48,759 nt of DNA, from the IMG/VR virus record IMGVR_UViG_3300029805_000004; one strand, 5' to 3'. Shown here one piece after another: positions 17,080 through 48,759 of this stretch (positions are counted from its first letter, which is position 1; each line of letters begins with the position of its first letter). The position numbers and the translations under genes were made by a program. A model generated the notes under the pieces. The model was not told where the DNA came from, did not search any database, and saw only the letters and a program-made list of their open reading frames with translations. Origin of the DNA: a virus.

Positions 17080-18711
17080 ATGAAAATTCAGCAGTATGGT
17101 CAGGCACAAGTTACGCGGCGGGTAGCCACTCAGCCTACGTTGCGGACCCAGCAGATTGCCGATACAACCACCCCTATTTTGAAAGGGTTAGCTAATATCG
17201 CTGGTGCCATGGATCTGCAAAAACGACAAGCAGATGACACGGCGGCTGAAGAAGCATTGATTGGCTTTGAACGTGACCAGAATGATTTGTTTTTCAATCC
17301 TGATAGTGGCTACTACAACACGCAAGGCAAGACTGCGTATGAAGGTGCTGACGTTGCGAATGAGTCATTGGCTAAACTGCAAAGTAATTACGCTGACGGC
17401 CTGAGTTCTCCTGATGCACGTCGTAAATTTATGACAGCGTCGAATACCCATGTCACTAGAAGTCAGGCGAACATTAGCAAACATTCAGCACAAGGTCTGA
17501 ACGACTACGAGACTGCGACAATATCGGCCCGTGTTGAGCAGAGTTTAGAAAGTGCCGCGCTGCACTACAATGACAATAATTCATTACAACTTCAGAACGC
17601 AGTGATGCGTACATCGGTGTCTGAACAAGCAGACCGTTTGGGGTTGGATGGCAAGGCCAAAGCTGAAATGATTCAGACTGCTGAATCAATTTTTGTAACG
17701 ACAACTATCAATGCAGCACTGGCCCAAAATGATATCAGTCGTGCGAATGAATTGATGGGTAGGTTTGGTAATCGACTTGAAGGTAAAGATGCACAGGTGG
17801 TGACAGCTAATCTCAACAAGGCCAACATTGCTGTTGACACGAACGCTGCTGCAACCAAGGTCGTCGGTGACGGTACTAAATCTTTAGGCGCCATGGTTGA
17901 CGAAGTTAATGAGATTGACGCGACCACACCTGAAGGTGCGGCAATGAAAACGGAAGTCATGCGTCTGGTTAAGAACCGTTACGCACTTGATAAAACAATC
18001 CGTCAGGAAGGTGAACGCAAGCTATATGAGAATTATGGCAGTCAGATCCAAGCGGGTGATTTAAGGGTGTCAAACATTCCCGGCAATGATTGGGATAACA
18101 TGACCGTTGCACAACACAGTGCCTTGATGAAGCTCGAAAAAGTGATGGCTAAAGGTGATGACGTCGTAACTAATGACGTGGTGTTATCCAACTTGTTGCT
18201 ATTACCTACGGCTGAGTTAGCCAAGGTTGACCCTACAGAATACTTTGACCGCGTTGGGGGTAGTGACCGCGATAAATTAAATGCAGCCGTTAAAGCGGCA
18301 CGCAAGCCTGCTTCAGCAAATGATGAATCCAACTCGGTACGTGCACGCTCAACCAGTGTGACAGCCACCTTGTTTCAACTCACAGGTAAAAAATCTAGCC
18401 GATACAACGATACTGATACTGAATTTGCTAATGCCTTTCATCGCATGGTCAATGTAGCGGTGCAGCAAGAAGAATTAGGTTTGGGTCGTAAGCTGAAACC
18501 AATAGAGTTTGACAACTTGCTTAAAGCGACGACACGCACTGCTGTGATGGAAGGTAGATTTTTTGGTGAAAACGAATATGACATTGATGATGTGCCAGCA
18601 GAATACATGGATGAAATCACTGAATCCTTGGTCAATCGTGGCATACCCGTTACAGGTGACAATATCACCCGCGCTTACATTAGGGCTGATCGTGCGGGGT
18701 TATTAGACTAA
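17080..18711 (+). CDS. internal virion / ejection protein (gp15 position)
   Basis: 543 aa, helical, Ala/Gln-rich. Gene order supports the call. Confidence 0.5.
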   Translation: MKIQQYGQAQVTRRVATQPTLRTQQIADTTTPILKGLANIAGAMDLQKRQADDTAAEEALIGFERDQNDLFFNPDSGYYNTQGKTAYEGADVANESLAKLQSNYADGLSSPDARRKFMTASNTHVTRSQANISKHSAQGLNDYETATISARVEQSLESAALHYNDNNSLQLQNAVMRTSVSEQADRLGLDGKAKAEMIQTAESIFVTTTINAALAQNDISRANELMGRFGNRLEGKDAQVVTANLNKANIAVDTNAAATKVVGDGTKSLGAMVDEVNEIDATTPEGAAMKTEVMRLVKNRYALDKTIRQEGERKLYENYGSQIQAGDLRVSNIPGNDWDNMTVAQHSALMKLEKVMAKGDDVVTNDVVLSNLLLLPTAELAKVDPTEYFDRVGGSDRDKLNAAVKAARKPASANDESNSVRARSTSVTATLFQLTGKKSSRYNDTDTEFANAFHRMVNVAVQQEELGLGRKLKPIEFDNLLKATTRTAVMEGRFFGENEYDIDDVPAEYMDEITESLVNRGIPVTGDNITRAYIRADRAGLLD

Positions 18712-20651
18712 TGGCTGAACAAAATAGATTTGATGCAATCATTGATGATTCATTCACGTCGGACCCGTTGCGTGCGACATTAAGTGAATCCATGAAGGAA
18801 AGCCCTGACAACCGGGCTAAAATTCTGGACCTGTCAAACAAGACTGGTATACCTGCTGAAGCAGTAGCACCTGATGTTGCAGGGGTGGAAGCACAGGCCA
18901 GATTTGATGCTGTTGATATCAAGGGTATGACGCTTCGTTCTCCTGTGACCAGCGACTTCCTGTCGAATTATGATAATGCGTCAGTCTCACATGATGACAT
19001 TGAAAACCTTGAGCAGACTGAGCATTTATTTTCAGGACTAGGTCGGGTCATATCATTACGATATCAAGACATTTTGGCAGGTACACAACTCAAAGCGATT
19101 GAAGAACGTCAACGACTTGGTATTGGGAGGTATCTGGCTGCTGAAGATTTGGACCCCATTACGCAGGATTTAATTGAGCGAAACATTAACGCTACTCAAG
19201 ATCGAACTGCTGAACTACTTGAAGGTATCCGCCAGCGTGGGGAAGATATCAATGCTTTAACACCACAAGATTTAAACATCCTTGAAGAAGGTGCAAGGGC
19301 TGGTGTTGAATCCTTATCAGTGATGCTACCAGCATTAGCTATTGGTGCTGCAACACGCACCGGGGTGACTGGCGTGCTGTCCTCAATCGGTGTCACCACC
19401 ATGGGGGCCAATTATGGTTCAGCACGTGAGAAAGGATTAGATCCTGACGAAGCACTATTGTATTCACAAATCCAAACCGTCATAGAAGTCGGTACTGAAC
19501 TGCTGCCTGTTAAGTCGCTGGTTGATATCGTGTCCAGTAAGACCCGATCCCAGCTTGGTAAGAACGTATTGCAATTCATAGTCCGTGAAATGGGTACTGA
19601 GCAGCTTGCTACGCTGGGTCAGACCATTACTGATTATGCGTTTGACCTTGATGAACAATTAAAAGCTGCTTCATCGGTTGGTGAAATGGCGGCTATCCAA
19701 GCACGTCGTCAAGCTGTGACAGCGATTGCTACTATTGTGGGTGGTGGTGCACAAGCCGGGATTGCTGCGACAATCAATGCAGGCGTGCAGGCGGTAAGCA
19801 AAGACGAACAGATGAAGGATGTCAAAGGTGAAGCCGAGCAATCATCCATAGATGACATCGTGGACTTGGCTGAACAATCCAAAGTTAAAGATCGCAGCAC
19901 TGAAACATTCCGACAATTTATAGAACAAGCTGCACCTAATGACGTGGTTTACATCGACGGACCACAGGCAGCATTGTACTTGCAGGAAGTGGGCGAGGTT
20001 GAAGGTGATCCAGTCTTGGAGGCCATCACTAAACAAATCGGTGAAGCAGCCGTGACGAATGGTGAAGTGGTTATCCCGGTTGCAGACTTTGCTGCTGACT
20101 TTGTGGGCAGTGAGCATTTTGAAGCGTTGCGTCCGCACATGACATTGAGTGCTGATACCGTATCACCGTTCAGAGCAGAATCCGAGAAGGAGGCCACCGA
20201 GAACTATACGCGGCGTCTGGTTGAAGAGGCGAATGAAAACGTATCTGAATATGCAGAGAACCAAGCGATATTTACTAACACGGTGGACCAGCTAGTTGCT
20301 ACCGGGCAGGTCAATAAGAAAGCGGCAAAGCAGATGGCCCTAATCGTACCCGCGTGGGCTACGGTGATGAGTCGTCACACAGGGATGCCGGTTGCAGAAC
20401 TGTATGCCAAGGTGGGCTTGACCATTGAAGGACCGTTTGAAGAACGTAAGGCGGCGGTGGCTGAAGGTGCTGCTGAGATAGGATTGATACTGGACCAGCA
20501 AGATTTCGGTGACGTTAGCTTTGATGAGCAACATACGCTTGCTGAGACTGGTGAAGCGATCACCGTCAAGAGGTCCGCACAGCGCGTGTTTGAACAAAAA
20601 CGAAAACAACGTACAATGACTCAAAACTTATTGGATTGTTTATATGGCTGA
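18711..20651 (+). CDS. internal virion / ejection protein (gp16 position); no lysozyme or transglycosylase motif seen
   Basis: TAATG-coupled start. 646 aa with a central hydrophobic Gly/Ala-rich segment (LPALAIGAATRTGVTGVLSSIGVTTMGA). Confidence 0.5.
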   Translation: MAEQNRFDAIIDDSFTSDPLRATLSESMKESPDNRAKILDLSNKTGIPAEAVAPDVAGVEAQARFDAVDIKGMTLRSPVTSDFLSNYDNASVSHDDIENLEQTEHLFSGLGRVISLRYQDILAGTQLKAIEERQRLGIGRYLAAEDLDPITQDLIERNINATQDRTAELLEGIRQRGEDINALTPQDLNILEEGARAGVESLSVMLPALAIGAATRTGVTGVLSSIGVTTMGANYGSAREKGLDPDEALLYSQIQTVIEVGTELLPVKSLVDIVSSKTRSQLGKNVLQFIVREMGTEQLATLGQTITDYAFDLDEQLKAASSVGEMAAIQARRQAVTAIATIVGGGAQAGIAATINAGVQAVSKDEQMKDVKGEAEQSSIDDIVDLAEQSKVKDRSTETFRQFIEQAAPNDVVYIDGPQAALYLQEVGEVEGDPVLEAITKQIGEAAVTNGEVVIPVADFAADFVGSEHFEALRPHMTLSADTVSPFRAESEKEATENYTRRLVEEANENVSEYAENQAIFTNTVDQLVATGQVNKKAAKQMALIVPAWATVMSRHTGMPVAELYAKVGLTIEGPFEERKAAVAEGAAEIGLILDQQDFGDVSFDEQHTLAETGEAITVKRSAQRVFEQKRKQRTMTQNLLDCLYG

Positions 20652-23763: not shown

Positions 23764-23970
23764 GTGATATCACCACGGGATATAGCGTCAGGCGGGTATC
23801 TTAATTCTCCTGTCAGTGTGGCGGCAAATGGTTACATAGCAGTAAGTGTGGATAGTGGCGGTGGTGGTGCGTATCCTGTGTTTGGTGCAGGTAGATTGCT
23901 GAAGCAGATCCAACAGGACGATGAAGAAATAATGGTAATACTAATGGCATTTATGGGGATGATTCGATGA
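23764..23970 (+). CDS. possible small protein (68 aa, GTG start)
   Basis: The only ORF filling this gap. ATGA-coupled to the giant gene. Weak RBS. Confidence 0.4.
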   Translation: MISPRDIASGGYLNSPVSVAANGYIAVSVDSGGGGAYPVFGAGRLLKQIQQDDEEIMVILMAFMGMIR

Positions 23971-26900
23971 GCTTACAGGACTGTCTGAGAAAAGCAGGGA
24001 AAGCGTTCAATGCTTCCGATGCCACGGTCATCAATGAAAATGTCGAACAGCTTGTCAGTAGCGGTGTAGAACGGGCCACGGCTGAGACTCAAGCGGTTGA
24101 GCAGTTTCTATCACAGCAGACCGATGAGCTTAATGACATCGCCACACAAGCTGAAGAACTCGGTGCTACCGTAGCACGTGAGGACTTGACGCAACCTGAC
24201 TATTTGGCAGACTTCACCGCGACGTCCGCTACTGATTTCCATGGCAGACTATCTGAAGCGATGTCAGCAAGCACCAACGCATTGTCGGTGAAGATATACG
24301 ACGTCAGTGAATATGAGAATATGCAACTGTTCTTAACCGATGATGGTAAGGCCGGGTTTGCATTAGAGTACGATGGTGGTTTAATATCCGTGTTTAAGCA
24401 CCCGGATTCGTCCATTGATGCAGCATTAGATGTCATCGTGCCAGCAGCCATTCAAGCTGGTGCTACGAAGCTGGAAGCGTTTGACGGTTTTTTAACCGCA
24501 CGATATAAAGAATTTGGATTTGTCGAAGTATTACGGGATGATTGGAACGACAATTATGCACCGGCTGGCTGGGATAAATCTGTATTAGGTACACCCGCTG
24601 TAGTGGCGATGGAATTGAAAGGAGTAGCGCAATATGAATACAATGAAGAAACCATTCCGTTCTCGGTTCAACACCCGGTTGGAGTACGACGAGGCGATGA
24701 GTCGTTACAACCAAGTGATGCAACACCTGACCAAAGGCGCACCACGGGGCGTGAGTCAGATGGAAGTCTCAACGGACTCCCACGGGAAGTAGGCAATTTC
24801 AATGCAGCCGCCAGCAGTAAGATTGCAGCGGTTGCTGAAAATTATGTAACTCAACTCGGACTGGAATACAGTCCACCCACCAATTACGCAACTGTCGATG
24901 TGGAACGTGCGCGAAGAATAGCTGAAGCGTATGAAGCTATGAAGCACGATCCAGAAAACCCTGAAGTTAAAGAAGCCTATGCCGCACTGACTGAAGAAGT
25001 CATTGCACAATACCAAGCTGCACTTGATGCCGGGTTGAAGGTTGAGTTTATCAACTTTGAACGTGATGGTGATCCGTATGCAGCTTCACCGCGCATGGTG
25101 ACGGATGACATCAACAACAACAATCACATGTGGGTGTTCAGCACACGTGACGGTTTTGGTTCAAGCGTCGAGATAGATGTATCAAACAATCCCTTATTAG
25201 CTGAGACAGACTTTGTCATATCCGGGCAGAAAGCACTGGTCAATGACTTATTCCGGGTGGTCCATGATTACTTTGGTCACGCTAAAGAAGGTGTCGGCTT
25301 CCGGGCCATCGGTGAAGAAAATGCGTGGCGTATTCATTCCGCTATGTTTTCACCATTAGCGCGACAAGCATTGACGACTGAAACACGCGGTCAGAACTCA
25401 TGGGTCAATTATGGTCCACATGGCGAGGCCAACCAGACAGCGACCAGCGATACCGTATTTGCAGATCAGAAAACAGGACTGCTACCACAATGGGTCGTCG
25501 ATGAAGGTCGTATTGACCAGCCTATATTCAACCAAGATATCAATCCCACAGCGGTCCGCAATGCGCTTGGCCTGCACAGTGCCGTCGAGCAAGCGGTGAT
25601 GGATACCGACTTACAGCAATGGTCCAAAAAAGCTGGCAACAATAATAAACAAGTCAAAGCATTAGACATAAAGATTGCTGAACTTCAGACCACTTACAAA
25701 GCGGAACAAGCTGAATTTGAAGCCGCTATGGATAGGTTAGAAGCTAATCCCGGAAACCAAGAGGCGATTGATAACTTAGAAGATAAGCTGTCAGACACCA
25801 CCGTGTCTAACGAGATATCAAAGTTGAAGTTTGAGCGTTCCAGAATTGCCAACAATCCCTTGGCACCGGGTGTTGAAATCTGGTCGAAGATATCTAAGAC
25901 TGCTGGCGTCAAGAAAGAAGAATTAACGTGGTTGGGATTAGAAGAATTTTTGAAGGTAGATCCTAAAGGAAAGTTCAGCCGGGAAACAGTTCTTAACTTC
26001 GTGCGTGCTAACGGCGTGGTGGTGGAAGAAACCATCGGTGATCAAGAGACATCATCGCGCAATGAACTTGAGTGGGATAGCGGCACCGTGTGGGACGAGG
26101 AAGAAGCCTACATGCACAACGTCGAAGATATGATGTATGAGTTCGACGCTGGTGATGATGACACGTCTTATATCAACATCGCTACCTTCATGGACAAGTG
26201 GATGCACGACAACATCGACACGGTGTTGGCAAATTACAAAACATCGCTGCCTGAAGGTGAGTTTGCTGAACTGACTGAACTGGACACGCCGGGTGATCAA
26301 ATTGTCTGGTTGGCTAACCACTACCCTGTCAATGAAGATATGCGCAGTGAGGCCCGTGAGGACTTTGAAGAAGCCGCCACAGCAGCAGCGCGTGAAGCCT
26401 ACTTGGATGATCCGACCTACATACATAAAGCCACCAACGTAGAAGATTTATACATCTTCGGTAGTGACGACTTGGGTTATGACATTCGCCATGGTGGGTG
26501 GGATAACGCTAAATACATGATTGACAACCAACTCCATATTGATTCTCTCAATGAGACTCAAATCCACGCATTTCATTATGCTATTGAAGAAGGATTGTTG
26601 GAACAAGTTGAGGACGTTAATGTTGCCAAGTGGGGCGATTACGTTATGGATGGTAGCTGGGATAACTACCGGGAAATCAAACTCATCCTACCTGATCTTG
26701 GCGGTCAAGACTTTGACTATGATATGCACTTTGAGGACTCCAACATCGTCGCGTTCCTACGGGTGGATGATAGAGATTTATCGACTGGTACTACAAGAGA
26801 ACAAAAGCGGACTGTTGAGAAAGAAGATTTTAATGAGTTTGATGACCCTAGTCGTCCACGTTACGGGGTTAAAGTTACGGTTGATGGAAAGGTCTACCGT

Positions 26901-29900
26901 AGTGATTACGATACTGCTGAAGAAAGGGATGCCAACTTCATACCGCTAAGTGATGCGGGTGGCAATCAAGTAGACAACGTAGCCAAAACATTCTTCATTG
27001 ATGAATTTCAATCTGACTGGCACCAACAAGGTCGTCAGGAAGGGTATAAATTCACAGAATCAGACCGCGTAGAGGCGCGTGCAAAAGCTGAAGTATTGAA
27101 GAAAGAACAACAAGACAACCTTGACAGCCTTGAAGAAAAATATGGTGAAGATTGGAAATGGATGTCGTCCCATGAAGAACGCAACGTCAATGTAGAACTA
27201 GGCGATAAAATAAGAAAGTTGCACGAACAAGCAGACGCGGTCCCTAATGCGCCATTCAAGGGTGATGCGTGGGTCAACTTAGGTTTGAAACGGGCCATCA
27301 TTGAAGCCGTTGATAATGGGTACGAGTCAATCGCGTGGCCTAACTCACAAGTGCTGGTGGACCGATGGAGTGAAATGTACCGGGAACTGTACGTTAATCA
27401 GTACGACAGGAAGATGGTCAAAGGTATCAAAAAATTGACTGGTCAAACACCAGTGCAGTTGGACCTTGAAGGTAATCCTTATCCTACGACCAGCGATGTG
27501 TTGAACGCTTTTGACCTAGTACCGTCAAGTGAATCAGGTAGATTTAATTTAAAACTAAAAAGCGGTCACAACACCATTGAAGCAATTCCTGTTAATGACG
27601 AAGGGATTGCCAGTACAGGTCGGTCCCTTGGTGAAGTAAGTAAGCTGACGTTTAGCAATGAAGGTCATGCAGTTGAATTTTTAAAAGATGTTGTCAAAAC
27701 AGAATCAACGCAAGGCTACTTCATCATCCCAATCACAGATGAGCTACGGGCAGATATCAAGAATGATGGCCTGACCTTATTCCAAAAACAAAGCGGTGAA
27801 GCACGTGGGTATTATGATCCGACGAACGTATTGATCCGATTGAACGAAGCAGCCAATCCTTCAACCTTCATTCATGAGTTTGCTCACTTCATGTATGACA
27901 TGGAACAAAAACTTAAAGGACCAAACCTTAATGCAATCAACAACTGGTATCACGGCAATGCTGAAGATATCGCTGCTGAAGCGTCTGAGCATTATGGACA
28001 CCTCATATCAGGGTTTGAAGTTGACCAATACTTAGACAACGGCACGACAGGTGATGTGGAAATAGATACAGCCATCTTGGTAGCCACGCATGAGCAGTTT
28101 GCCCGTGGGTTTGAGTCCTATGTGATGGAAGGTAAGGCACCAAGTATGGAATTGCGCAATGTATTCCGGGTGTTAGCGCGTATGCTGACAGCAGTTTACA
28201 AAGCCATCACAGGCGGTTTAAGCACTCCAAACGTCACAGACGATATGCGACAGGTGTTTGACCGATTGATTGCTACAGAGGAACAGATAGCCGCCAGCGA
28301 AGCACGTGACCGCGCAGCACCTTTGTTTACTGATGCTGCCATGGCGGGGATGACTGAAGAACAGTTCCAGAAATATCAAGAGCAGGCACGCAAAGCTACC
28401 GATAAATCCAACGAGACTTTACGCGACAAGGTGATGAAAGAATTAACCCGCGTGCAGCAGAAGTGGTGGGGTGATGAGCGTGATGACATCATTGATGAGC
28501 AAGAAGAAATCCTACGAACTGAACCTGTCTATGTGGCACGTGCTCGGTTGCGTAGTGGTGACGATCTGAAATTGGATTATGTCTCTACGATTGAAATCAT
28601 GGGTGTGAAAAATTTGATGGGTATCGTCCCGATGCGTGGCCTAACTGCAAAAGGTGGTCTAGGCACGCACCCGGATGAAGCTGCGAAAGTCTACGGGTTT
28701 GAAACCGGGGACCAGTTAATTGAAGCACTGATGACTGAACCCAAGTTGCAAGATAAAGCAGAGGCTAATGCTGATGCTGAAATGATTGAGCGTCACGGTG
28801 ACATCATGAACGATGGCACGCTGGAAAAACTAGCCGATGACATGGTCAGAAATGAGCAGCGCGGTACATTGCTGCTGACTGAAATTAAGGCATTGTCTAA
28901 GGGCCAGAACGTACCACTGATTGACAAGCAAACTATCAAGGCATTAGCGGCTGAGAACATCGGCAAGCTGGCATTGAAAGATATCCGTCCTGACCGTTAC
29001 CGCAAAGCTGAGATCCACAGTGCGCAGGAAGCAGCCATTGCATTATCTAAAGGGGACCAAGTAGCAGCATTAAGAGCTAAGACCCAGCAGGTGATGAACT
29101 TCTACTTATGGCGTGAAGCACGTGATGCACAACTCACGGGTGGCAAGGTGGCTACATACATGGCCCGGTTCAAGAAGAAGTCACTGCGTGAACGTATCGG
29201 TAAAGCTGGCAACAACTATCTGGAAAACATTGACCGTATTTTAGAACGGTTTGAGTTTAGGAAATCAGTGTCGTTCAAAAAACATGCTGAAGCACGTGAC
29301 TCATTGCAGGCATGGGTGGACCAGCAGGGCAGCGAGAGTGACATGATTGCCTTGAGCACTGAAGTATTAGATGAAACGTATGCGCGTCACTGGCGTGAGA
29401 TACCGATTGATGAGTTGGTGGGTATTCAGGAGTCAATCCAAAGCATTGAGAACAGTGCCAAGGCGTTGAACAACATCATCATCAATGAAGAGAAGTTGAC
29501 CTATGAGCAGACCATCACCCGGATGCTGAATCAGATGGGCCAACTTAAAGATAAAGTTTTCCCACAATATAAAGATTCTGTTGACAATGGTGGTGTGCGT
29601 CGCTGGACTGAAAACTTCCTGACTGAACAGGTCAAAATCCCATGGATGATGCGCTGGTTAGACAACGGTGAAGAAGTGGGGATCATGCACCAAACCATTA
29701 TGCAGCCGATGAACAACGCTTATGATGCTGAAGTGCGTATGTGGGACCGGGTTGGTAAGGTGGTGATGCAGGCCATCAATGGTCGTAGCAAGGATGATGT
29801 CAAACGTCACCAGCAAGAAATCAGCATCCCTGAAATTGCCAATACTGAAACCAAGCTGGAAGGTAAGCTGCTCGGTCATCAAATTATTGCGGTTGCATTG

Positions 29901-31583
29901 AACACAGGTAACGAAGGTAACTTGCGGAAGATGCTACTCGGTGAAGGATGGGCCACTACGGATGAAGAAGTCAGCATTGAGAATCCTAAACTCCAAGCCG
30001 TGTTGCAGCACATGAGCACGTCAGATTGGGACTTGGTTGAACTGATATGGGAACAGATTGGATCACTTAAAGCAGACTTAGCAGCCATCCATAAACGGGC
30101 CACTGGTATCACCATGGATGAAGTGAAACCCGTGTCGTTCGTACAGGATGGTCGCACCATTAAGGGTGGGTATTACCCGGTTAAGTACGATGCCAACCGT
30201 AGCGAGAAAGCACGTCTTAACGAAGAGAAAGCAGATGAACAGGCCGTGTCCATGTTGACGGCGGGTGGCTTTGTGCAGCCTGTCGCACGTACAGGTGCAC
30301 GCATCAATCGTACTGAGTTCGTAGGTCCTATCAAGTTCAGCTTGGATGTGGTGCCTAACCATATTCAGGAAGTTATCCACTTCATTACTCACTATGATGC
30401 GATTAAACAGGTGAATAAATTAACGGGTGATCCACGCATTGCCGCTGCCATCAAAACAAAATTGGGACCAGCACAATACGCATTGCTTAAACCTTGGCTG
30501 AACGATGTGGCTAAAGATGGCAAGGAAGCACCTATCAAGTCAGGTCTTGAATCACTGGCCCGTAGGTTAAGGTTTGGTACTACATACGGTGTAATGGGCT
30601 TCAAGGCGTCCACAGGCTTAATTCAAATCGCCGGTATCTTTAACACCGCTGCTGAAGTGGGCGTGGTTAGAACACTACGCGCAGTACGCACCGTGTTGGG
30701 TAGCGAGAAGTCCATACGTGAGACTTGGGAATTTGCCAAGGCCAACAGCAAGGTGCTTGAACATCGTCAGCAAACTATGGATAGGGAAATCAAGAACGCA
30801 TTGATAAGCCTGCAATCCAAACGCGGTCCGCTGGCAGTGGTACAGGAAGCTGCCATGATGCACATCGCTTTGGTCCAAACGTACACCGTTGACTTACCAT
30901 CATGGTATGCCGCCTATGCGAAGGGCATGGATAAATTTGAAGGTGATGAACAGCGTGCTTTCCAGTATGCAGATTGGGTAGTTGAGAACGTGCAGGGTAG
31001 TGGTCTGACAAAAGATATGTCATCCATCATGCGCAGCAAATCTGAACTGTACCGATTAGGCACCATGTTCATGACGTTCTTCAGTTCATTGTATAACCAT
31101 AATGCTGACGTGAAGCGTGCGGTGCAGGCGGGTCAACTTAGCATCCCGGCAGCAGTCGGCAAGCTGATGTTGTTGTGGACATTACCCGCGCTATTTGAAA
31201 CAGTGATGCGCGAAGGGTGGGGTGATGAGGACGATGAAGAAAGTTTGTTAGAGCGCACATTAGTCGGCACAGCCATGATGCCAATCACCACGGTGCCGTT
31301 CTTTAATCAGGTAGCGAACGGGGTGATATCAGGCTACGGTTACTCAGCATCACCTGTATTTCCGCTGGTCGAAGGTGGCGTTGAAGCCACACGTGCGCTG
31401 GCTGAAGGTGGGGAATTGACCAAGTACAAAATCAAACAAGCAAGTAAGGCGGTGGGCATTGCTTTTGCCATACCGGGTGTAAATCAGGCATGGATCACCG
31501 GGGAACATTTGTACGACTATGCAGTAGAAGGTGAAGATTTATCAATGCGTTACCTGCTTGTCACAACTAATAAAGACAAGTAG
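23967..31583 (+). CDS. giant 2538-aa polyvalent-type virion protein with zincin HExxH module and hydrophobic C-terminal region
   Basis: Uninterrupted 7.6-kb ORF. HEFAH at aa 1303-1307 (nt 27873-27887), then HEQFARGFESY at aa 1375. VHDYFGH motif at aa 432-438. FIDEFQSDWHQQGRQEGY segment. LARRLRFG at about aa 2197-2204, followed by hydrophobic segments. Confidence 0.8.
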   Translation: MSLQDCLRKAGKAFNASDATVINENVEQLVSSGVERATAETQAVEQFLSQQTDELNDIATQAEELGATVAREDLTQPDYLADFTATSATDFHGRLSEAMSASTNALSVKIYDVSEYENMQLFLTDDGKAGFALEYDGGLISVFKHPDSSIDAALDVIVPAAIQAGATKLEAFDGFLTARYKEFGFVEVLRDDWNDNYAPAGWDKSVLGTPAVVAMELKGVAQYEYNEETIPFSVQHPVGVRRGDESLQPSDATPDQRRTTGRESDGSLNGLPREVGNFNAAASSKIAAVAENYVTQLGLEYSPPTNYATVDVERARRIAEAYEAMKHDPENPEVKEAYAALTEEVIAQYQAALDAGLKVEFINFERDGDPYAASPRMVTDDINNNNHMWVFSTRDGFGSSVEIDVSNNPLLAETDFVISGQKALVNDLFRVVHDYFGHAKEGVGFRAIGEENAWRIHSAMFSPLARQALTTETRGQNSWVNYGPHGEANQTATSDTVFADQKTGLLPQWVVDEGRIDQPIFNQDINPTAVRNALGLHSAVEQAVMDTDLQQWSKKAGNNNKQVKALDIKIAELQTTYKAEQAEFEAAMDRLEANPGNQEAIDNLEDKLSDTTVSNEISKLKFERSRIANNPLAPGVEIWSKISKTAGVKKEELTWLGLEEFLKVDPKGKFSRETVLNFVRANGVVVEETIGDQETSSRNELEWDSGTVWDEEEAYMHNVEDMMYEFDAGDDDTSYINIATFMDKWMHDNIDTVLANYKTSLPEGEFAELTELDTPGDQIVWLANHYPVNEDMRSEAREDFEEAATAAAREAYLDDPTYIHKATNVEDLYIFGSDDLGYDIRHGGWDNAKYMIDNQLHIDSLNETQIHAFHYAIEEGLLEQVEDVNVAKWGDYVMDGSWDNYREIKLILPDLGGQDFDYDMHFEDSNIVAFLRVDDRDLSTGTTREQKRTVEKEDFNEFDDPSRPRYGVKVTVDGKVYRSDYDTAEERDANFIPLSDAGGNQVDNVAKTFFIDEFQSDWHQQGRQEGYKFTESDRVEARAKAEVLKKEQQDNLDSLEEKYGEDWKWMSSHEERNVNVELGDKIRKLHEQADAVPNAPFKGDAWVNLGLKRAIIEAVDNGYESIAWPNSQVLVDRWSEMYRELYVNQYDRKMVKGIKKLTGQTPVQLDLEGNPYPTTSDVLNAFDLVPSSESGRFNLKLKSGHNTIEAIPVNDEGIASTGRSLGEVSKLTFSNEGHAVEFLKDVVKTESTQGYFIIPITDELRADIKNDGLTLFQKQSGEARGYYDPTNVLIRLNEAANPSTFIHEFAHFMYDMEQKLKGPNLNAINNWYHGNAEDIAAEASEHYGHLISGFEVDQYLDNGTTGDVEIDTAILVATHEQFARGFESYVMEGKAPSMELRNVFRVLARMLTAVYKAITGGLSTPNVTDDMRQVFDRLIATEEQIAASEARDRAAPLFTDAAMAGMTEEQFQKYQEQARKATDKSNETLRDKVMKELTRVQQKWWGDERDDIIDEQEEILRTEPVYVARARLRSGDDLKLDYVSTIEIMGVKNLMGIVPMRGLTAKGGLGTHPDEAAKVYGFETGDQLIEALMTEPKLQDKAEANADAEMIERHGDIMNDGTLEKLADDMVRNEQRGTLLLTEIKALSKGQNVPLIDKQTIKALAAENIGKLALKDIRPDRYRKAEIHSAQEAAIALSKGDQVAALRAKTQQVMNFYLWREARDAQLTGGKVATYMARFKKKSLRERIGKAGNNYLENIDRILERFEFRKSVSFKKHAEARDSLQAWVDQQGSESDMIALSTEVLDETYARHWREIPIDELVGIQESIQSIENSAKALNNIIINEEKLTYEQTITRMLNQMGQLKDKVFPQYKDSVDNGGVRRWTENFLTEQVKIPWMMRWLDNGEEVGIMHQTIMQPMNNAYDAEVRMWDRVGKVVMQAINGRSKDDVKRHQQEISIPEIANTETKLEGKLLGHQIIAVALNTGNEGNLRKMLLGEGWATTDEEVSIENPKLQAVLQHMSTSDWDLVELIWEQIGSLKADLAAIHKRATGITMDEVKPVSFVQDGRTIKGGYYPVKYDANRSEKARLNEEKADEQAVSMLTAGGFVQPVARTGARINRTEFVGPIKFSLDVVPNHIQEVIHFITHYDAIKQVNKLTGDPRIAAAIKTKLGPAQYALLKPWLNDVAKDGKEAPIKSGLESLARRLRFGTTYGVMGFKASTGLIQIAGIFNTAAEVGVVRTLRAVRTVLGSEKSIRETWEFAKANSKVLEHRQQTMDREIKNALISLQSKRGPLAVVQEAAMMHIALVQTYTVDLPSWYAAYAKGMDKFEGDEQRAFQYADWVVENVQGSGLTKDMSSIMRSKSELYRLGTMFMTFFSSLYNHNADVKRAVQAGQLSIPAAVGKLMLLWTLPALFETVMREGWGDEDDEESLLERTLVGTAMMPITTVPFFNQVANGVISGYGYSASPVFPLVEGGVEATRALAEGGELTKYKIKQASKAVGIAFAIPGVNQAWITGEHLYDYAVEGEDLSMRYLLVTTNKDK

Positions 31584-34600: not shown

Positions 34601-36007
34601 TGGGGTGTTGAGTCACCGCTTGACCCTAGCCTTAGAACAGCGGCGCATCACTTTGATTATGAAAGTAGTACAGGTGTGGCGAGTGCCAGCATTGAAGAAT
34701 CCAATGCCGTAGCTTGGGAGGCGGTAGCTGAACATGCGAATGAAATAGTGGCAGACCGCCGCTGGTTGGCATTAACTAATACGCTATGTTGGTGGCAGTA
34801 CAAAGGTACTGAGAAACGCATCTTAAAATCATGGCGTATACGTGCGGCTAATATAGGTCGCTTACCACAGCGGTTTACCATTGAAGGTAGTAATGACGGG
34901 CTGAATTGGACAGCGATTGATTCAACTTATACTAATAGCGACTTCAATATCGGGGGCAGTAATCTTTGGGGCGACTTAGAAGATACGTCAGCCAATACAA
35001 CGGCTTACCTTTACCATCGGATAAACATTACCGCTAATGGCAGTGACCCTTCATTAACAGGGTTTGCCAGCATGGAGTTCAACACCGAATTGCCGTCCGA
35101 CTATTACCTAATCCCACAGGGTGAAATGTTTGCCTATCGTGGTGATGAAGTGGTGGTTAATGGCACGTTTGATGTTAATACAGACGGTTGGAGTCCTAAA
35201 GATGGTGACGCTGAATTAACCGTAGTAAATCAAACCCTGCGCATCACTAACGGTGCGGCAAATGGGGCTTGGGCTAATCAGGCATTAACAGGTTTAATCG
35301 TTGGTGAGACTTACGAGGGTAGCGTACAAGGTGTCGGCGGCGATGCAGGCGCATCACGATTTACTTGTGGTAGTTCTGTAGGTGGCAGTGACTATTCAGG
35401 GTCGGGTGCTGATAATCTATTTGGCCTTGATGGAAAAACTTACACGTTTAGATTTGTAGCAGTAGCCACAACAGCTTGGTTTAGAGTGTCCAACGCTACG
35501 GCACTTCTTGGTGCTTACTATGACTACGACAACATCACCGTCAAACAGGTCGGCGTACAAATTGAACGCACCTACCTTGCTGAGTTCACAACCGACAGCG
35601 ATGGCGATGTAAGTTCATTCAAAAACCTTACGCCAGCCAAGCAGTACGAAACTGAAATGGAAGTGCTGAAAACCTTAACTGTGCGGGGTGAGATTCACAA
35701 TCCGCAAGTGGCGACAGCATGGGGTGATGTTGATGGTACGGTAGCACCACCGCTGGTAAGTGTTGAGCATAATATAGCGGCAATTGTCGGCTTAGACGCA
35801 GGTAGTTATTATGTTGAGTTTAACGAACCTATGGACACTAAAAGCTATGTGGTGGTGGCGACAATAGTCAGCCTTAATACCAACCATAACAGGATTGTTA
35901 AAACAGGTAATAAGACTGTCAGGGGGTTTGAATTGTTGGCGCAAACCACAGGAAGCGTACCGGCTGATGCCGTCCTATCATTTGCAGTATTTGGAGGGAA
36001 AGACTAA
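31613..36007 (+). CDS. 1464-aa receptor-binding tail fibre (Ala-rich coiled region, repeated YTGNG/GF domains, CBM-like jelly rolls, discoidin-like domain)
   Basis: N-terminus SGPYTGNGVTTQFSYGFRV is typical of podoviral fibres. Ala-rich region at nt ~32125-32490. Two GDE(L/V)V.NGTFD...DN(V/I)(S/T)VK modules. WRIRAANIGRLPQRFTIEGSNDGLNWTAID is discoidin-like. Confidence 0.75.
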   Translation: MTVNTTNIVSGPYTGNGVTTQFSYGFRVDDKTQLVVYETDDLGVESVLVVDVDYTVNNVGDDAGGTIDRIAGALPTDYTWYIRSNYLHLQLTAFASQGGFFPDVHEAAMDLLTFLSQQQEDRIARAMRFNDSYSGGADPELPVPEADKVLVWSSDALNIINGPSEGTFMGWADAAIAAAAAAVISADAAAASAVAADLSKIAAALSETNAGDAANAAIAAAAAAAIDKAAAAVSAAAALVSQGAASDSEAAAAASAAAAAIDQLAAAASAAAALVSEGLAEYWAGEAQTAAGANEKIAARNAVQNQDAVSQGLAQRSGMSSTIYTGNGTSQSIITGVDMSSGDFGGFNWIKNRDAAISHALTDSVRGDFRLESDTTAAESATTAVALTSTGFDLVTASNRYNQNSVDYVAWSFQTNKKASRNIAIYPEQFDNAVWAKSAGIVVTPNAQIAPNGFMTADELAHDGVNNRAVVQSPTTLKANTTYTFSIYLKIISGSFTENSKCQLAIYGSGLVATSSVIIGDALNGDSEWQRFEATATTNGAPSVANFSIRCDELVTLAEWGAQIEEGSAATDYQNAETNHGKPYECHYNTEMGFSIVGYEGDEVAGHEIPHHLGGEPELTIYKNRESVYSWIVKGAMFQDDEFLFLNATNALATGYVSSQDDTTLTVDDTEELNEAGINIIAYNFRSIAGVSKIGKYIGTAATGNYVDCGFIPRFVMLKTLDSAGGWAMYDTARGIDQVVNAESSDAETTNVKIELTENGFVLIGTSYNALDQQYLFITFAETDSDANKSWTDYDYAVDKDVLVIEQDTLVSFANGFSETGQVDTQFNVGSGVTYSEKGDELVTNGTFDTDTDWNKGAGWSIGSGVATSDGANGNQALNQIVNLVEGDTYQVSFEVTAYTAGLLQLELIATTTVAAINVNATGVYTVTYVAEADTSMIVVFRSNASSPFAGGVDNVSVKVVVSTPKKLYLFMDKTGLLGSTEFRPLVGLSRDEADFWGVESPLDPSLRTAAHHFDYESSTGVASASIEESNAVAWEAVAEHANEIVADRRWLALTNTLCWWQYKGTEKRILKSWRIRAANIGRLPQRFTIEGSNDGLNWTAIDSTYTNSDFNIGGSNLWGDLEDTSANTTAYLYHRINITANGSDPSLTGFASMEFNTELPSDYYLIPQGEMFAYRGDEVVVNGTFDVNTDGWSPKDGDAELTVVNQTLRITNGAANGAWANQALTGLIVGETYEGSVQGVGGDAGASRFTCGSSVGGSDYSGSGADNLFGLDGKTYTFRFVAVATTAWFRVSNATALLGAYYDYDNITVKQVGVQIERTYLAEFTTDSDGDVSSFKNLTPAKQYETEMEVLKTLTVRGEIHNPQVATAWGDVDGTVAPPLVSVEHNIAAIVGLDAGSYYVEFNEPMDTKSYVVVATIVSLNTNHNRIVKTGNKTVRGFELLAQTTGSVPADAVLSFAVFGGKD

Positions 36008-36435
36008 TGAGCTTTGTAAGACAAATAGAAAACAAGCCGTTGGAGATATGTGCGGTGCAACTGGATGGCTTTGTTGAAGCTGAATTGCCCGAAGATACTA
36101 CCCATCGTAGCGCATGGCGATTGGTCGGCGGCGTTGTGGTGATTGATAAGCCAGCCAAGGCGGTCATTGATAAAGATATCGGCAAGCAAGACTTGAACAG
36201 TGAGCTGCACGATATGACCTATACCTATGCCGATGGGCGGGTGATTCAAACCAGACCAGCCGACTTGACCAATATTGAGATTGCCATCGCTCAAGGTGCA
36301 GATCGCAAGTGGATCATGAACGATGATACCGTTGAGCTACTAACCGTGGCAGAACTAACCGAGGCGCGCAATGCCAGTATCGGTACAGGTACGGACCACT
36401 GGAACACTTACGTTGATTTGGTGGAGGCATTGTAA
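36007..36435 (+). CDS. hypothetical protein (142 aa) downstream of the fibre gene
   Basis: TAATG-coupled to the fibre gene. Could be a fibre chaperone by position only. Confidence 0.55.
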   Translation: MSFVRQIENKPLEICAVQLDGFVEAELPEDTTHRSAWRLVGGVVVIDKPAKAVIDKDIGKQDLNSELHDMTYTYADGRVIQTRPADLTNIEIAIAQGADRKWIMNDDTVELLTVAELTEARNASIGTGTDHWNTYVDLVEAL

Positions 36436-36584
36436 TGAAGTGCATAGTGATAGTCATCTTCGCTGCATTGATAGTGGTACTGGCGGGATGCAGTCCTACT
36501 TACATCGACGTGCATAATAATTCTGGTGATGTAGTTATTGATGCGTCCAAAACCTTTCCTGTAAATGCTAAAGCTGGATTATGA
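36435..36584 (+). CDS. 49-aa lipoprotein (signal peptide plus LAGC lipobox)
   Basis: Below the track cutoff. GGAGG lies 6 nt before ATG 36435. Sequence MKCIVIVIFAALIVVLAGCSPTYIDVHNNSGDVVIDASKTFPVNAKAGL. Coupled by TAATG upstream and ATGA downstream. Confidence 0.65.
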   Translation: MKCIVIVIFAALIVVLAGCSPTYIDVHNNSGDVVIDASKTFPVNAKAGL

Positions 36585-36925
36585 ACCTTACATCCTCACA
36601 GACCTATAAGGACGCGACACCAGCAGAGCGTGACGCTGTCTGCAACGGCTGTGGTAGCAAAGGGTTTGGTGGCTGGGTGATACCTGACACTATTTACTTC
36701 CTGAGTATAAAGGATGTCTGTGATATCCACGATTGGGATTACGGTGAAGGTGTGACGCTGGCAGATAAAGGCGCGGCTGACCGACGAATGTATAACAACA
36801 TGCTGCGTAAGATTGAAGTGTCCGCTAAGTGGCTTAGACCAGCACGAAGGTGGCGTGCTAATACCTATTATGTAGCAGTCAAAAAACTAGGCGGACCCGC
36901 TTATTGGGAGGGTAAAGATGGATGA
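36581..36925 (+). CDS. phospholipase A2-like (HDxxY) protein, 114 aa
   Basis: CDIHDWDYGEG, AADRRMYNNM and TYYVAVKKLGG parallel the CxRHDFGYxN / D..F..DM / YY.AV..G pattern of prokaryotic/group XIV PLA2 as I recall it. A DUF1353-type HDxxY family is an alternative. Confidence 0.5.
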   Translation: MNLTSSQTYKDATPAERDAVCNGCGSKGFGGWVIPDTIYFLSIKDVCDIHDWDYGEGVTLADKGAADRRMYNNMLRKIEVSAKWLRPARRWRANTYYVAVKKLGGPAYWEGKDG

Positions 36926-37091
36926 CATGCAGCAAAAGCAAATCATTATTGAACCTACTATTATTATAAAAAATAATACTGAAGCAGGTTTGTTTGAGTG
37001 GACGGCATGGATTCTTATTCCACTGCTAACCCTGTACGTTACGTGGCGCTTGTTTCATAAGAAGCATAACGACAAAGACAAAGGTGAGTGA
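36918..37091 (+). CDS. 57-aa single-TM protein, holin candidate
   Basis: Below the track cutoff. TM segment WTAWILIPLLTLYVTWRLF followed by a charged tail HKKHNDKDKGE. Overlaps both neighbours and lies directly upstream of the endolysin. Confidence 0.5.
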   Translation: MDDMQQKQIIIEPTIIIKNNTEAGLFEWTAWILIPLLTLYVTWRLFHKKHNDKDKGE

Positions 37092-37481: not shown

Positions 37482-37820
37482 ATGGCTTCACCTGAAGAGT
37501 GCCTTACGTTTAAGCAGCAGCTTAATGATCTGACAACTCATATAGAAAAAAGGTACACCGCTGTGCATGAACACATACGTGAATTGCGTGAAGATTTCAG
37601 TGACCATCTTGAGATTCAGGAAGATCGTCATCGTGAGAACATGGCGTCACGTGCTCATAACACCAAGGCCATTGAGACTTTGACGGACAACACGAAGGGT
37701 ATGGTCGATGCGTGGAAAACGATTGCCAACTTGGTTAAGTTTGTTGTGGTTATCGCAACCGTGTTGGGTTCAACAGCCGCTATCCATACCGCGCTGCAAC
37801 ACTTCAATCTGATTACATGA
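37482..37820 (+). CDS. coiled-coil protein with C-terminal TM anchor (112 aa), last gene of the rightward arm
   Basis: AAGGA lies 6 nt before ATG 37482; the track start 37377 overlaps the endolysin. C-terminal LVKFVVVIATVLGSTAAIHTAL. Confidence 0.55.
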   Translation: MASPEECLTFKQQLNDLTTHIEKRYTAVHEHIRELREDFSDHLEIQEDRHRENMASRAHNTKAIETLTDNTKGMVDAWKTIANLVKFVVVIATVLGSTAAIHTALQHFNLIT

Positions 37821-43662: not shown

Positions 43663-43917
43663 TTATTTGTGGACCACCCAATTGCCGCCATCTAAATTTT
43701 TAACCATCACAAAAGGCACCTTGCTATTGGTGTCGTGGCCCGTGAGCACTATTTGATTTTCACCATTGCCGGTGTATCTCACTACTTGCCAGTCATCGTT
43801 AATGGCAACGTCGAATGAAGTGATTTTCTCCTCAACTAATTCCGCGACCTTGGTCTTGGCTAGTATTGGTAGTGATATCACCCCCAGCAAACCACCTAAA
43901 AATGAACGTCTTTTCAT
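43663..43917 (-). CDS. small exported protein with twin-arginine-like signal peptide (84 aa)
   Basis: MKRRSFLGGLLGVISLPILA-KT. GGGGGA RBS. ATGA-coupled to the upstream membrane-protein gene. Confidence 0.6.
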   Translation of the reverse strand: MKRRSFLGGLLGVISLPILAKTKVAELVEEKITSFDVAINDDWQVVRYTGNGENQIVLTGHDTNSKVPFVMVKNLDGGNWVVHK

Positions 43918-44144
43918 GAGTTGTATCCCCCAAGTTGTTCTGCATACCATTCAAAGGCAACGGTAATGAGATTATCAAAAGCAGCGTAGACACCACGCAT
44001 CACGAACAGCACTGCGTACCATTCAACGATTGCCATTTCTGGATCATCATTCAGATGGATATCAAACAGCATCACAATCACCAGCGGCGTCATGAAAAAC
44101 ATGGCGTAGAACAGTAAAATAAATGCGTGCTTTTGACTAATCAT
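43914..44144 (-). CDS. small membrane protein (76 aa, two predicted TM helices)
   Basis: FILLFYAMFFMTPLVIVMLF and AIVEWYAVLFVMRGVYAAF. TAATG-coupled. Confidence 0.55.
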   Translation of the reverse strand: MISQKHAFILLFYAMFFMTPLVIVMLFDIHLNDDPEMAIVEWYAVLFVMRGVYAAFDNLITVAFEWYAEQLGGYNS

Positions 44145-48502: not shown

Positions 48503-48681
48503 TACTCACCACCTTTGAACACGTTTTCAAGGTGCTCAATTAAATACTTAGCATAGCCAACGACTAGCTCAACATCGTCAAACATGAATGTTTCATCACC
48601 ACGCTCGACGCACTTTTTATACTCAACTTTCAACCGGGCCAATACAGCCGGGGTGAACTCAAGTGAAGATTGATTTGCCAT
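48502..48681 (-). CDS. hypothetical early protein (59 aa) spanning the repeat boundary
   Basis: Below the track cutoff. Sequence MANQSSLEFTPAVLARLKVEYKKCVERGDETFMFDDVELVVGYAKYLIEHLENVFKGGE. The same ATG appears at 39-41, which shows the two ends are contiguous. Confidence 0.5.
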   Translation of the reverse strand: MANQSSLEFTPAVLARLKVEYKKCVERGDETFMFDDVELVVGYAKYLIEHLENVFKGGE

Positions 48682-48759
48682 TATTTATACCTCAGTAATT
48701 TTGACGTTTTGTGATACCAGACCGTAGCTGTCTTTCAGCTTCATGCCAGTCTCACGACT
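48641..48759. repeat. Terminal direct repeat copy 2 (identical to 1-119)
   Basis: Exact 119-bp identity with the window start. Confidence 0.95.

Follow-up and report, generated by a model that had tools for sequence, protein, structure and literature searches.

A phospholipase A2-type protein coupled to a lipoprotein gene in the late operon of a podovirus and its possible role in outer-membrane disruption at lysis

In the late operon of a podovirus represented by the IMG/VR record IMGVR_UViG_3300029805_000004, the whole analysed stretch of which (48,759 nucleotides) is referred to here as the window, a gene for a 114-residue protein lies between the genes for a small lipoprotein and a holin-like protein (Table 1). 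This protein, the subject of the present analysis, holds the sequences VCDIHDWDYGEG, AADRRMYNNM and ANTYYVAVKKLGG. An initial annotation, made from the sequence letters, had recognised in them the motif pattern of the group XIV secreted phospholipases A2 (PLA2s) and had suggested two roles for the gene product, namely a breach of the outer membrane at lysis or a virion-borne function in entry. The open reading frame (ORF) and the quoted motifs are present exactly as claimed, and the pattern is genuine: the Streptomyces violaceoruber enzyme 1faz reads CARHDFGYRN, IDSAFYEDM and YYQAVKIFG, in register with C47-H50-D51-Y54, D67 and Y96-Y97-V100-G104 of the window protein.

Family, fold and cysteine pair of the 114-residue protein

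Searches with the single sequence were uninformative. No NCBIfam match was obtained, phmmer against the PDB returned only a spurious dioxygenase match, the score against Pfam PF09056 (Phospholip_A2_3) was 13.0 bits (E 0.16) and thus below the gathering cutoff of 29.4, no match to PF07087 (DUF1353) was seen at E ≤ 1, and the PHROG matched by the protein, 6098, is of unknown function. A word-indexed homolog search yielded 5 relatives only, and a profile and an exhaustive search were therefore needed. When the window protein and these 5 relatives were combined into a profile, three secreted PLA2s headed the PDB list, and the exhaustive search with the same 6-sequence profile matched 1,832 representative clusters (counted at 50% identity) at E ≤ 1e-3 and 827 at E ≤ 1e-10, so that a fortuitous ORF can be dismissed. 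The members of this family are mostly standalone proteins of 110-140 residues; a few carry N- or C-terminal transmembrane (TM) anchors (P0151, P0018, P0061, P0080), and the homolog of Thiohalocapsa phage LS06-2018-MD03 (TPMD03_52, L002:4944-5363), annotated as a 'DNA binding protein', looks misannotated.

A profile of 107 sequences matched four structures in the PDB, 1faz (1.9e-7), 4aup (6.5e-6), 7ygk (2.5e-5) and 8k1w (1.3e-4), all of them microbial secreted PLA2s, and nothing else was significant. The AlphaFold2 model of the window protein (pLDDT 90.9, pTM 0.85) led to the same result: the top four Foldseek matches in the PDB are these same PLA2s, with which it shares the three-helix core, aligned over nearly the full length with probabilities of 0.98-1.0 and TM-scores of 0.56-0.64, and the probability of the fifth match falls to 0.20. 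In the viral structure library, the best match is a 'phospholipase A2 domain protein' of Vibrio phage 1.097.O (TM-score 0.91), and the phage proteins are followed by VP1 of parvoviruses and densoviruses. All significant profile matches in the PDB and all top folds are hence PLA2s and none belongs to a non-lipase family, which bears out the enzyme class proposed in the initial annotation. The two Pfam families suggested there for comparison were aptly chosen, given that at E < 0.01, though below the thresholds of the models, DUF1353 is matched by 46 of the 107 relatives (best 1.4e-5) and Phospholip_A2_3 by 32 (best 2.3e-5), in addition to a few family members that match PLA2G12 and Phospholip_A2_4. 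No Pfam, NCBIfam or named PHROG model covers the family at threshold. Since the tests against PF09056 and DUF1353 both failed at threshold, the family is to be regarded as a sister of each rather than as a member.

H50, D51 and N73 are invariant in all 219 distinct family sequences and D67 is present in 213 of them, a pattern that is expected of an active enzyme whose active site is under selection. The hidden Markov model alignment places P35, C47, H50, D51, Y54, D67, Y96-Y97, V100 and G104 of the window protein in register with P49, C61, H64, D65, Y68, D85, Y114-Y115, V118 and G122 of 1faz. Conserved as well is a CNGCG loop (N22 in 196, G23 in 212 and G25 in 216 of the 219 sequences), for which the model has a lower pLDDT of 66-75. 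With the group XIV PLA2s (Streptomyces violaceoruber 1faz/1lwb; Tuber borchii TbSP1, 4aup; PF09056), the window protein shares the fold, the catalytic residues, the YY..V...G helix and a cysteine in register with Cys61. It differs from them in that the identity is only about 22-26%, a secretion signal or propeptide is missing, one disulfide is predicted where the known enzymes have two, no alignment is possible over the N-terminal half with the Ca2+ loop, and the protein is phage-encoded and found in lysis cassettes. Taken as a whole, sequence and modelled structure make it very probable that the protein is a PLA2-type enzyme with the His/Asp secreted-type fold. As the GenBank/UniProt entries of some homologs already carry the label 'phospholipase A2', the fold assignment itself is not new.

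The cysteines C24 and C47 covary in the family: among 216 sequences, both are present in 197, either one alone in a single sequence each and neither in 17 (p 4.5e-23). C47 aligns with C61 of 1faz, three residues ahead of the catalytic His, and C24 may be the counterpart of C45 of that enzyme. Owing to the joint loss of the two residues, a disulfide between them is predicted, which would imply an action outside the cytoplasm. The sequences without Cys24/Cys47 all keep Cys21 (18/18), whereas elsewhere only about one sequence in two has this residue; a subfamily marked by the motifs CNGAG and ANIHD may therefore use a different arrangement of cysteines. His/Asp PLA2s are Ca2+-dependent, and an enzyme with such a disulfide and a presumed need for Ca2+ would therefore be inert in the reducing, Ca2+-poor cytoplasm and active outside of it. 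The absence of a signal peptide that had been claimed for the protein is in agreement with the hydropathy scan, in which no hydrophobic N-terminus or signal peptide was seen. For this reason, the holin lesion would be the simplest exit, as for the M15 endolysin encoded nearby, which likewise has no signal sequence.

The only characterised relative is TtaP (STY1887) of Salmonella Typhi, the founding PLA2 of the DUF1353 class and a 125-residue protein without a signal peptide, whose PLA2 activity was measured and is lost in the variant D85A (PMC11525133, Gartly et al., J Biol Chem 2024). By its published description, TtaP resembles the window protein as a standalone PLA2-fold protein of about 115-125 residues that lacks a signal peptide, has the His/Asp dyad with an adjacent Asp, is a distant homolog of the group XIV PLA2s, and has its gene next to that of a phage-type endolysin, TtsA, in a spanin-less islet derived from a phage lysis cassette. 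Unlike the family described here, however, it has no disulfide cysteines, and its gene resides in a chromosomal toxin islet with no adjoining lipoprotein gene.

It is highly improbable in our view that the window protein is a catalytically inactive member of the fold serving as a lipid- or membrane-binding scaffold. Such a scaffold would be in line with the failure of every model to reach the Pfam threshold, with the CNGCG region, whose sequence could not be aligned with the Ca2+-binding loop of known PLA2s (D43-L44-C45 in 1faz), and with N22, which would presumably replace an Asp ligand at the Ca2+ site of the Streptomyces enzyme; the conservation of H50, D51, N73 and D67 across sequences as diverse as those of the family and the activity of TtaP, which is more divergent, argue against it.

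Late operon and genome of the window

The initial annotation had placed the PLA2 gene in a lysis cassette, ATGA-coupled to a lipoprotein gene upstream and overlapping a holin-like gene that is followed by an M15 endolysin gene, and this is the arrangement found. The start codon of the PLA2 gene (ATG at 36581) shares the sequence ATGA with the TGA of the lipoprotein gene, indicative of translational coupling, its end overlaps the ORF of the 57-residue protein (ATG at 36918) by 8 nt, and the stop of the latter overlaps the endolysin start. The PLA2 gene is thus co-oriented and contiguous with holin-like and endolysin genes, an arrangement that recurs across relatives as detailed below. The final gene of the operon begins 19 nt past the endolysin gene and is preceded by an AAGGA ribosome-binding site 6 nt before its ATG; the coding strand switches afterwards. 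In the upstream direction, the chain of stop/start overlaps continues via the 142-residue ORF to the gene of the 1464-residue tail fibre, and the coupling therefore denotes one late operon and not a lysis function per se. A scan for promoter- and terminator-like sites gave nothing above shuffled expectation.

Table 1. Coordinates of the PLA2 gene, its neighbours and further genes of the window.
Feature	Position	Strand	Remarks
142-residue protein	36007..36435	+	between tail fibre and lipoprotein genes, overlaps both
49-residue prelipoprotein	36435..36584	+	lipobox LAGC, Cys19, Ser at +2, mature part ~31 residues
114-residue PLA2-superfamily protein	36581..36925	+	H50-D51, D67, N73, Cys24-Cys47, CNGCG loop, no signal peptide
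57-residue single-TM protein	36918..37091	+	TM at ~residues 25-46, C-terminal tail basic and charged; resembles holins only in its architecture
M15 (Peptidase_M15_3) endolysin, 124 residues	37088..37462	+	no signal sequence; start GTG 37088 or ATG 37091
112-residue protein	37482..37820	+	N-terminal coiled-coil region, C-terminal TM; final gene of the late operon
543-residue protein	17080-18711	+	N-terminal lysozyme-like domain, like T7 gp16
646-residue protein	18711-20651	+	matches PHROG 9880
2538-residue protein	23967-31583	+	matches PHROG 9880
95-residue early-region ORF	43663-43950	-	twin-arginine-like signal peptide

The lipoprotein has a signal of the textbook type, MKCIVIVIFAALIVVLAG followed by the lipobox cysteine. 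It matches the LPAM_1 and YgdI/YgdR lipoprotein models weakly. The possibility that it is related to colicin lysis proteins or Rz1 was dismissed, as no such match was obtained in Pfam, PHROG or NCBIfam. The same three databases gave no significant family match for the 57-residue TM protein. The endolysin is well supported by Pfam PF08291 (E 1.7e-23), PHROG 894 (endolysin, 3e-33) and a MepK-like NCBIfam model (1e-7). For the 112-residue protein there are weak matches only, such as PHROG 689 (holin, E 0.037). Its assignment as an i-spanin was rejected because the hydropathy scan places the TM segment at the C-terminus; it may be a second holin, an antiholin or a lysis regulator. Small proteins built in the same way, with the coiled coil at the N-terminus and the TM segment at the C-terminus, also adjoin PLA2 and endolysin genes in several unrelated loci, L074 (6528-6815), L078, L051 and L003, and proteins of this build, which match no known holin or spanin family, may represent an unrecognised type of lysis protein. 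The 142-residue protein matched DUF4376 weakly (E 0.035) and no PHROG; it is possibly fibre-associated and probably stands outside the lysis module.

Nucleotides 1-120 of the window are repeated exactly at 48640-48759. This repeat identifies the window as a complete phage genome of about 48.6 kb that was either assembled as a circle or is terminally redundant. Its structural module is T7-like and encodes a portal, a tubular tail protein, a fibre whose N-terminal adaptor is of the T7 type, and an internal virion protein that carries a lysozyme domain. The N-terminal lysozyme-like domain was seen in a protein of 543 residues that resembles the internal virion protein gp16 of T7. PHROG 9880, of unknown function, is matched by the giant 2538-residue protein and by a 646-residue protein of the window alike. 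In the early region, the twin-arginine-like signal peptide of the 95-residue ORF reads KRRSFLGGLLGVISLPILA, and the following ORF of 76 residues is strongly hydrophobic (hydropathy maximum 2.47); the two are possibly exported or membrane early proteins.

That no canonical i-spanin/o-spanin pair is evident, as the initial annotation had stated, also holds for the complete window genome, in which none was found by simple home-made rules as opposed to a dedicated spanin finder. The 49-residue ORF is the sole plausible lipobox ORF of the 48.6 kb, the only other lipobox match being a 33-residue antisense ORF inside the tail-fibre gene. Neither an embedded Rz1-like ORF nor a late-operon protein with an N-terminal TM segment and a periplasmic coiled coil was detected in the window. 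Of the parts of a two-component spanin (Rz/Rz1), the late operon accordingly contains a lipoprotein, whereas an i-spanin-type protein and a nested lipobox ORF are absent.

Gene neighbourhood of the family and the spanin slot

For the comparison of gene neighbourhoods, 80 viral loci, the window and 5 other loci were reduced to 69 non-redundant loci. They had been collected with the 6-sequence alignment, by which the set is biased to closer relatives; genes were called by our own dynamic-programming caller, and lipobox and TM segments were assigned by home-made rules. On either side of the PLA2 gene, endolysins are the commonest annotated neighbours. At least 28 of the 69 loci have an endolysin gene no more than three genes away, compared with roughly 10% expected for one endolysin placed randomly in a genome of about 60 genes, and these endolysins belong to at least seven types, including GH108, M15, Amidase_2 and lysozyme-like enzymes. 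Small TM proteins occupy 25% of the positions within two genes of the PLA2 gene against a background of 8% (p 2e-11).

A lipobox ORF directly abuts the PLA2 gene in 25 of the 69 loci; when all ORFs were scanned, 26 such ORFs were observed and 0.85 were expected from the lipobox density elsewhere in the same loci (P ~1e-29). Thirteen lipoprotein-PLA2 pairs, among them those of the window and of a cultured Vibrio phage, are joined without a gap or overlap by 3-7 nt, with either gene order. In 24 of the 26 abutting ORFs, and in all loci but one, there is no Asp at position +2, and the lipoproteins are therefore predicted to be sorted to the outer membrane by the Lol rule of E. coli. They are mutually unrelated in sequence, are not Rz1-like and, when mature, are about 67 residues long (median); that of the window is not proline-rich. 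No Rz1-like lipobox ORF nested in an N-terminal-TM gene was found near any family member. These data suggest that the adjoining lipoprotein is a family-wide partner of the PLA2 and not an incidental neighbour.

The lipoprotein could also be taken to indicate a module for host modification or exclusion that has no part in lysis, in which it would block superinfection in the manner of Llp of T5 or of Cor-type lipoproteins, whose genes lie beside those for receptor binding, while the PLA2 would remodel host membranes or vesiculation, as proposed for TtaP in toxin export. The lipoprotein gene of the window follows the tail-fibre region, as does llp in T5, TtaP is made by living, non-lysing Salmonella and stays cell-associated, and the contexts of some loci are neither lysis-related nor structural. 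We nevertheless judge this module to be improbable: the genes are located at the end of the late operon and are overlap-coupled to holin-like and endolysin genes, the adjacency to endolysins is strong across the family, and the pairing of lipoprotein and PLA2 is far more specific than would be expected of two independent morons.

A common order in lambdoid-type loci is a Q-like late activator, endolysin, (lipoprotein), PLA2, a DksA/TraR zinc finger, an N-terminal-TM coiled-coil protein, TerS, TerL and portal, which corresponds to the lysis position of lambda. The zinc-finger gene, of the C4 DksA/TraR type (PF01258, 5e-11) and encoding about 70 residues, is the first or second gene downstream of the PLA2 gene, between lysis and terminase genes, in at least nine such loci (L008, L012, L017, L029, L032, L034, L038, L042 and L045). 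One to three genes upstream of the PLA2 gene, a protein cluster termed cA195 (191-240 residues) is found in L012, L032, L037, L038, L042 and L045; it occupies a place in which an endolysin might have been anticipated, had no match in Pfam or PHROG and was left out of the endolysin count, and it could be an unrecognised endolysin family. A nucleotide search of phage genomes, with the cassette as the query, gave nothing relevant. Nearly all genomic homologs belong to diderm hosts (Desulfobacterota, Gammaproteobacteria, Campylobacterota, Bdellovibrionota and Kiritimatiellales), with the exception of two doubtful bins, a Methanoperedens (L086) and a Dehalococcoidia (Chloroflexota; L091) metagenome-assembled genome, in which close homologs lie on contigs of 42-46 kb that are probably mis-binned phage and do not reveal real hosts.

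In three T7-like loci, L082 (5717-6348), L084 (5724-6357) and L058, the genes are arranged as internal virion lysozyme protein, a large protein, a single-TM protein of 72-81 residues, TerS, lipoprotein (48-67 residues), PLA2 and TerL. The order in T7 is gp16, fibre, holin, TerS, Rz-like and Rz1-like spanins and TerL. A comparison of the two orders shows that the pair of lipoprotein and PLA2 sits exactly at the position of the T7 spanins gp18.5/18.7. TerL of L084 is 48% identical to T7 gp19 (E 4e-162); BLASTP gave no alignment of its TerS with T7 gp18, and TerS was assigned through PHROG 891 only. With the spanins (lambda Rz/Rz1; T7 gp18.5/gp18.7), the pair therefore has in common the slot in T7-like genomes, the surrounding holin/endolysin cassette, a small outer-membrane lipoprotein component and the step in which it is proposed to act. 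On the other hand, the pair shows no homology to spanins, has no inner-membrane coiled-coil partner and no nested genes, and would act by enzymatic hydrolysis of lipids rather than by membrane fusion.

A candidate lipase step in host lysis

The lysis of Gram-negative hosts by phages is taught as a sequence of three steps carried out by holin, endolysin and spanin. We propose that in the phage studied here a Ca2+-dependent lipase released through the holin lesion disrupts the outer membrane at lysis together with its lipoprotein partner, and we consider the chances of this proposal to be evenly balanced. Late transcription would lead to five products, that is, an exported outer-membrane lipoprotein, the PLA2 and the endolysin in the cytoplasm, and two small inner-membrane proteins. 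As long as it is in the cytoplasm, the PLA2 would be inactive, given that free Ca2+ is sub-micromolar and that the disulfide between Cys24 and Cys47 could not form. After permeabilisation of the inner membrane by the holin-like protein, the PLA2 of 13 kDa would escape along with the signal-less M15 endolysin into the oxidising and Ca2+-rich periplasm, where it would become oxidised, bind Ca2+ and gain activity. Once the murein has been cut, phospholipids of the outer membrane's inner leaflet, and probably those of the inner membrane too, would be hydrolysed by the enzyme at their sn-2 ester, and the resulting lysophospholipids and free fatty acids would destabilise the outer membrane and so accomplish the third step that is normally performed by spanins. 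The co-translated lipoprotein would act as the partner in the outer membrane, by recruiting or activating the PLA2 or by perturbing the membrane itself.

Comparable solutions are known from other systems. Colicin lysis lipoproteins, with a mature length of about 30 residues, render the envelope leaky together with the phospholipase A PldA/OMPLA; there, unlike in the window, the lipase is a beta-barrel of the host, and the 49-residue lipoprotein has no match to the colicin-lysis family in Pfam. The lysis-cassette enzyme LysB of mycobacteriophages is lipolytic as well and follows the endolysin in detaching or disrupting the outer (myco)membrane (PMC5707550), but it has a serine esterase/cutinase-like fold, cuts the mycolyl-arabinogalactan ester and acts on mycolata hosts. 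The 'disruptin' gp28 of the podophage phiKT was described as a non-spanin outer-membrane disruptor in the context of the approximately 15% of phages without spanin genes (bioRxiv 10.1101/515445). Like the PLA2 module proposed here, it is a non-spanin solution for the outer-membrane step in a spanin-less podovirus, but it works without a lipoprotein partner and resembles cationic antimicrobial peptides rather than an enzyme. A search of the literature turned up no paper in which a phage PLA2 is given a role in lysis.

Several observations weigh against a role in lysis, in addition to the Ca2+ loop that cannot be aligned and to our reliance on home-made rules for gene calls, lipoboxes and TM segments. 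About 60% of the related loci have no recognised endolysin within three genes, and the homolog in L005 sits among small genes in a context that looks structural or early. The overlap coupling in the window, which reaches the tail-fibre gene, does not separate a lysis function from a structural one. In the N4-like Vibrio phage 1.097.O (L001), TerL and the head adaptor flank the pair, which is 12 kb away from the M15 peptidase gene, and in P0080, a protein of 475 residues, the PLA2 domain is part of a Gly-rich hydrophobic sequence resembling ejected or internal virion proteins. These last three findings would rather fit a virion-borne entry factor, that is, a packaged or tail-associated PLA2 that hydrolyses host membrane lipids locally at genome delivery, as does the unique region of parvovirus VP1 (VP1u). 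In the window, the gene follows the tail fibre and a possibly fibre-associated ORF, and homologs in L049, L051, L052/53 and L082/84 come after very large fibre-like or virion proteins. Furthermore, an enzyme that needs Ca2+ and contains a disulfide would be active in the extracellular space as well, and the fold resembles the PLA2 of parvovirus and densovirus VP1. The likeness to VP1u (Phospholip_A2_4), which is viral too and carries the HDxxY motif, is weak though recognisable and far below that to the microbial secreted PLA2s, and VP1u differs from the window protein as a part of a capsid protein that has no disulfides and serves in endosomal escape.

We regard such an entry factor as unlikely for several reasons. 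T7-type genomes place holin and lysis genes after the tail fibre anyway, and the PLA2 gene of the window is outside the T7-like block of internal virion proteins, which already has its own lysozyme domain. Across the family, the strongest neighbours are endolysins, small TM proteins and lipoproteins and not virion proteins. Moreover, the window protein is a standalone soluble protein of 114 residues without an evident domain for attachment to the virion, and a lipoprotein partner exported by the Sec and Lol pathways makes little sense for a virion component. Of the two roles suggested in the initial annotation, the comparative context thus favours the breach of the outer membrane over the entry factor.

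Other observations against the proposal concern the spanins. In the Thiohalocapsa phage, a gene annotated as an Rz-like spanin lies about 4 kb downstream of the homolog, and a simple 'replacement' of spanins is therefore not universal. In lambdoid-type loci, the nearby N-terminal-TM coiled-coil proteins (clusters c736 and c25899) could be i-spanins and the 'partner' lipoprotein their o-spanin, in which case the adjacency of the lipoprotein would only reflect the neighbourhood of spanin genes. In addition, deletion of TtaP gave no envelope or secretion phenotype (PMC11525133). All three points would agree with a non-essential lysis accessory that speeds up or completes membrane breakdown or recycles lipid beside unrecognised spanins, with the lipoprotein as an o-spanin or a part of a non-canonical spanin; the order of PLA2, lipoprotein and a 97-residue N-terminal-TM coiled-coil protein in L085 can be added to them. 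This accessory function appears rather unlikely to us in view of the window genome, which is devoid of an i-spanin-type protein (the TM segment of the 112-residue protein being C-terminal), and of the T7-like loci, which hold only the lipoprotein and the PLA2 in the spanin slot. The diversity of the adjoining lipoproteins, which are not Rz1-like, also argues against it, as does the frequent direct overlap coupling of the pair in either order, which suggests that the two proteins work jointly.

Going beyond the window, it can be hypothesized that the lipoprotein and the PLA2, gated by Ca2+ and the disulfide, form a self-contained two-gene module that performs the outer-membrane step of Gram-negative lysis by enzymatic means, replaces spanins in a sizeable share of 'spanin-less' phages and that is ancestral to the TtsA/TtaP pair in the type 10 secretion islet of typhoid toxin. 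We put this forward tentatively and think it doubtful as yet. The authors of the TtaP study considered that TtaP might supply the perturbation of the outer membrane after the muramidase TtsA, for which they found no phenotype (PMC11525133). A 2026 paper derives the Salmonella type 10 secretion systems, which lack spanins, from phage lysis cassettes; TtaP is unmentioned in it.

New in the present analysis are the family-wide partnership with lipoproteins, the covarying cysteine pair, the association with endolysins and the occupation of the spanin slot. In practical terms, the PLA2 is a candidate outer-membrane permeabiliser that may be paired with endolysins against Gram-negative bacteria, and the family provides annotation pipelines with a new marker of lysis cassettes. 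For spanin-less phages of Gram-negative hosts, gp28 of phiKT is the only alternative described (bioRxiv 10.1101/515445). The PLA2 family is large and almost unannotated, and a PLA2 that accompanies endolysins and lipoproteins and occupies the spanin slot of T7-like genomes would, if the proposed role is true, be an enzymatic solution to the third step of lysis. It would then also offer the first biological rationale for PLA2s of the DUF1353/TtaP class, among them the one encoded by the so far unexplained fifth gene in the islet of typhoid toxin.

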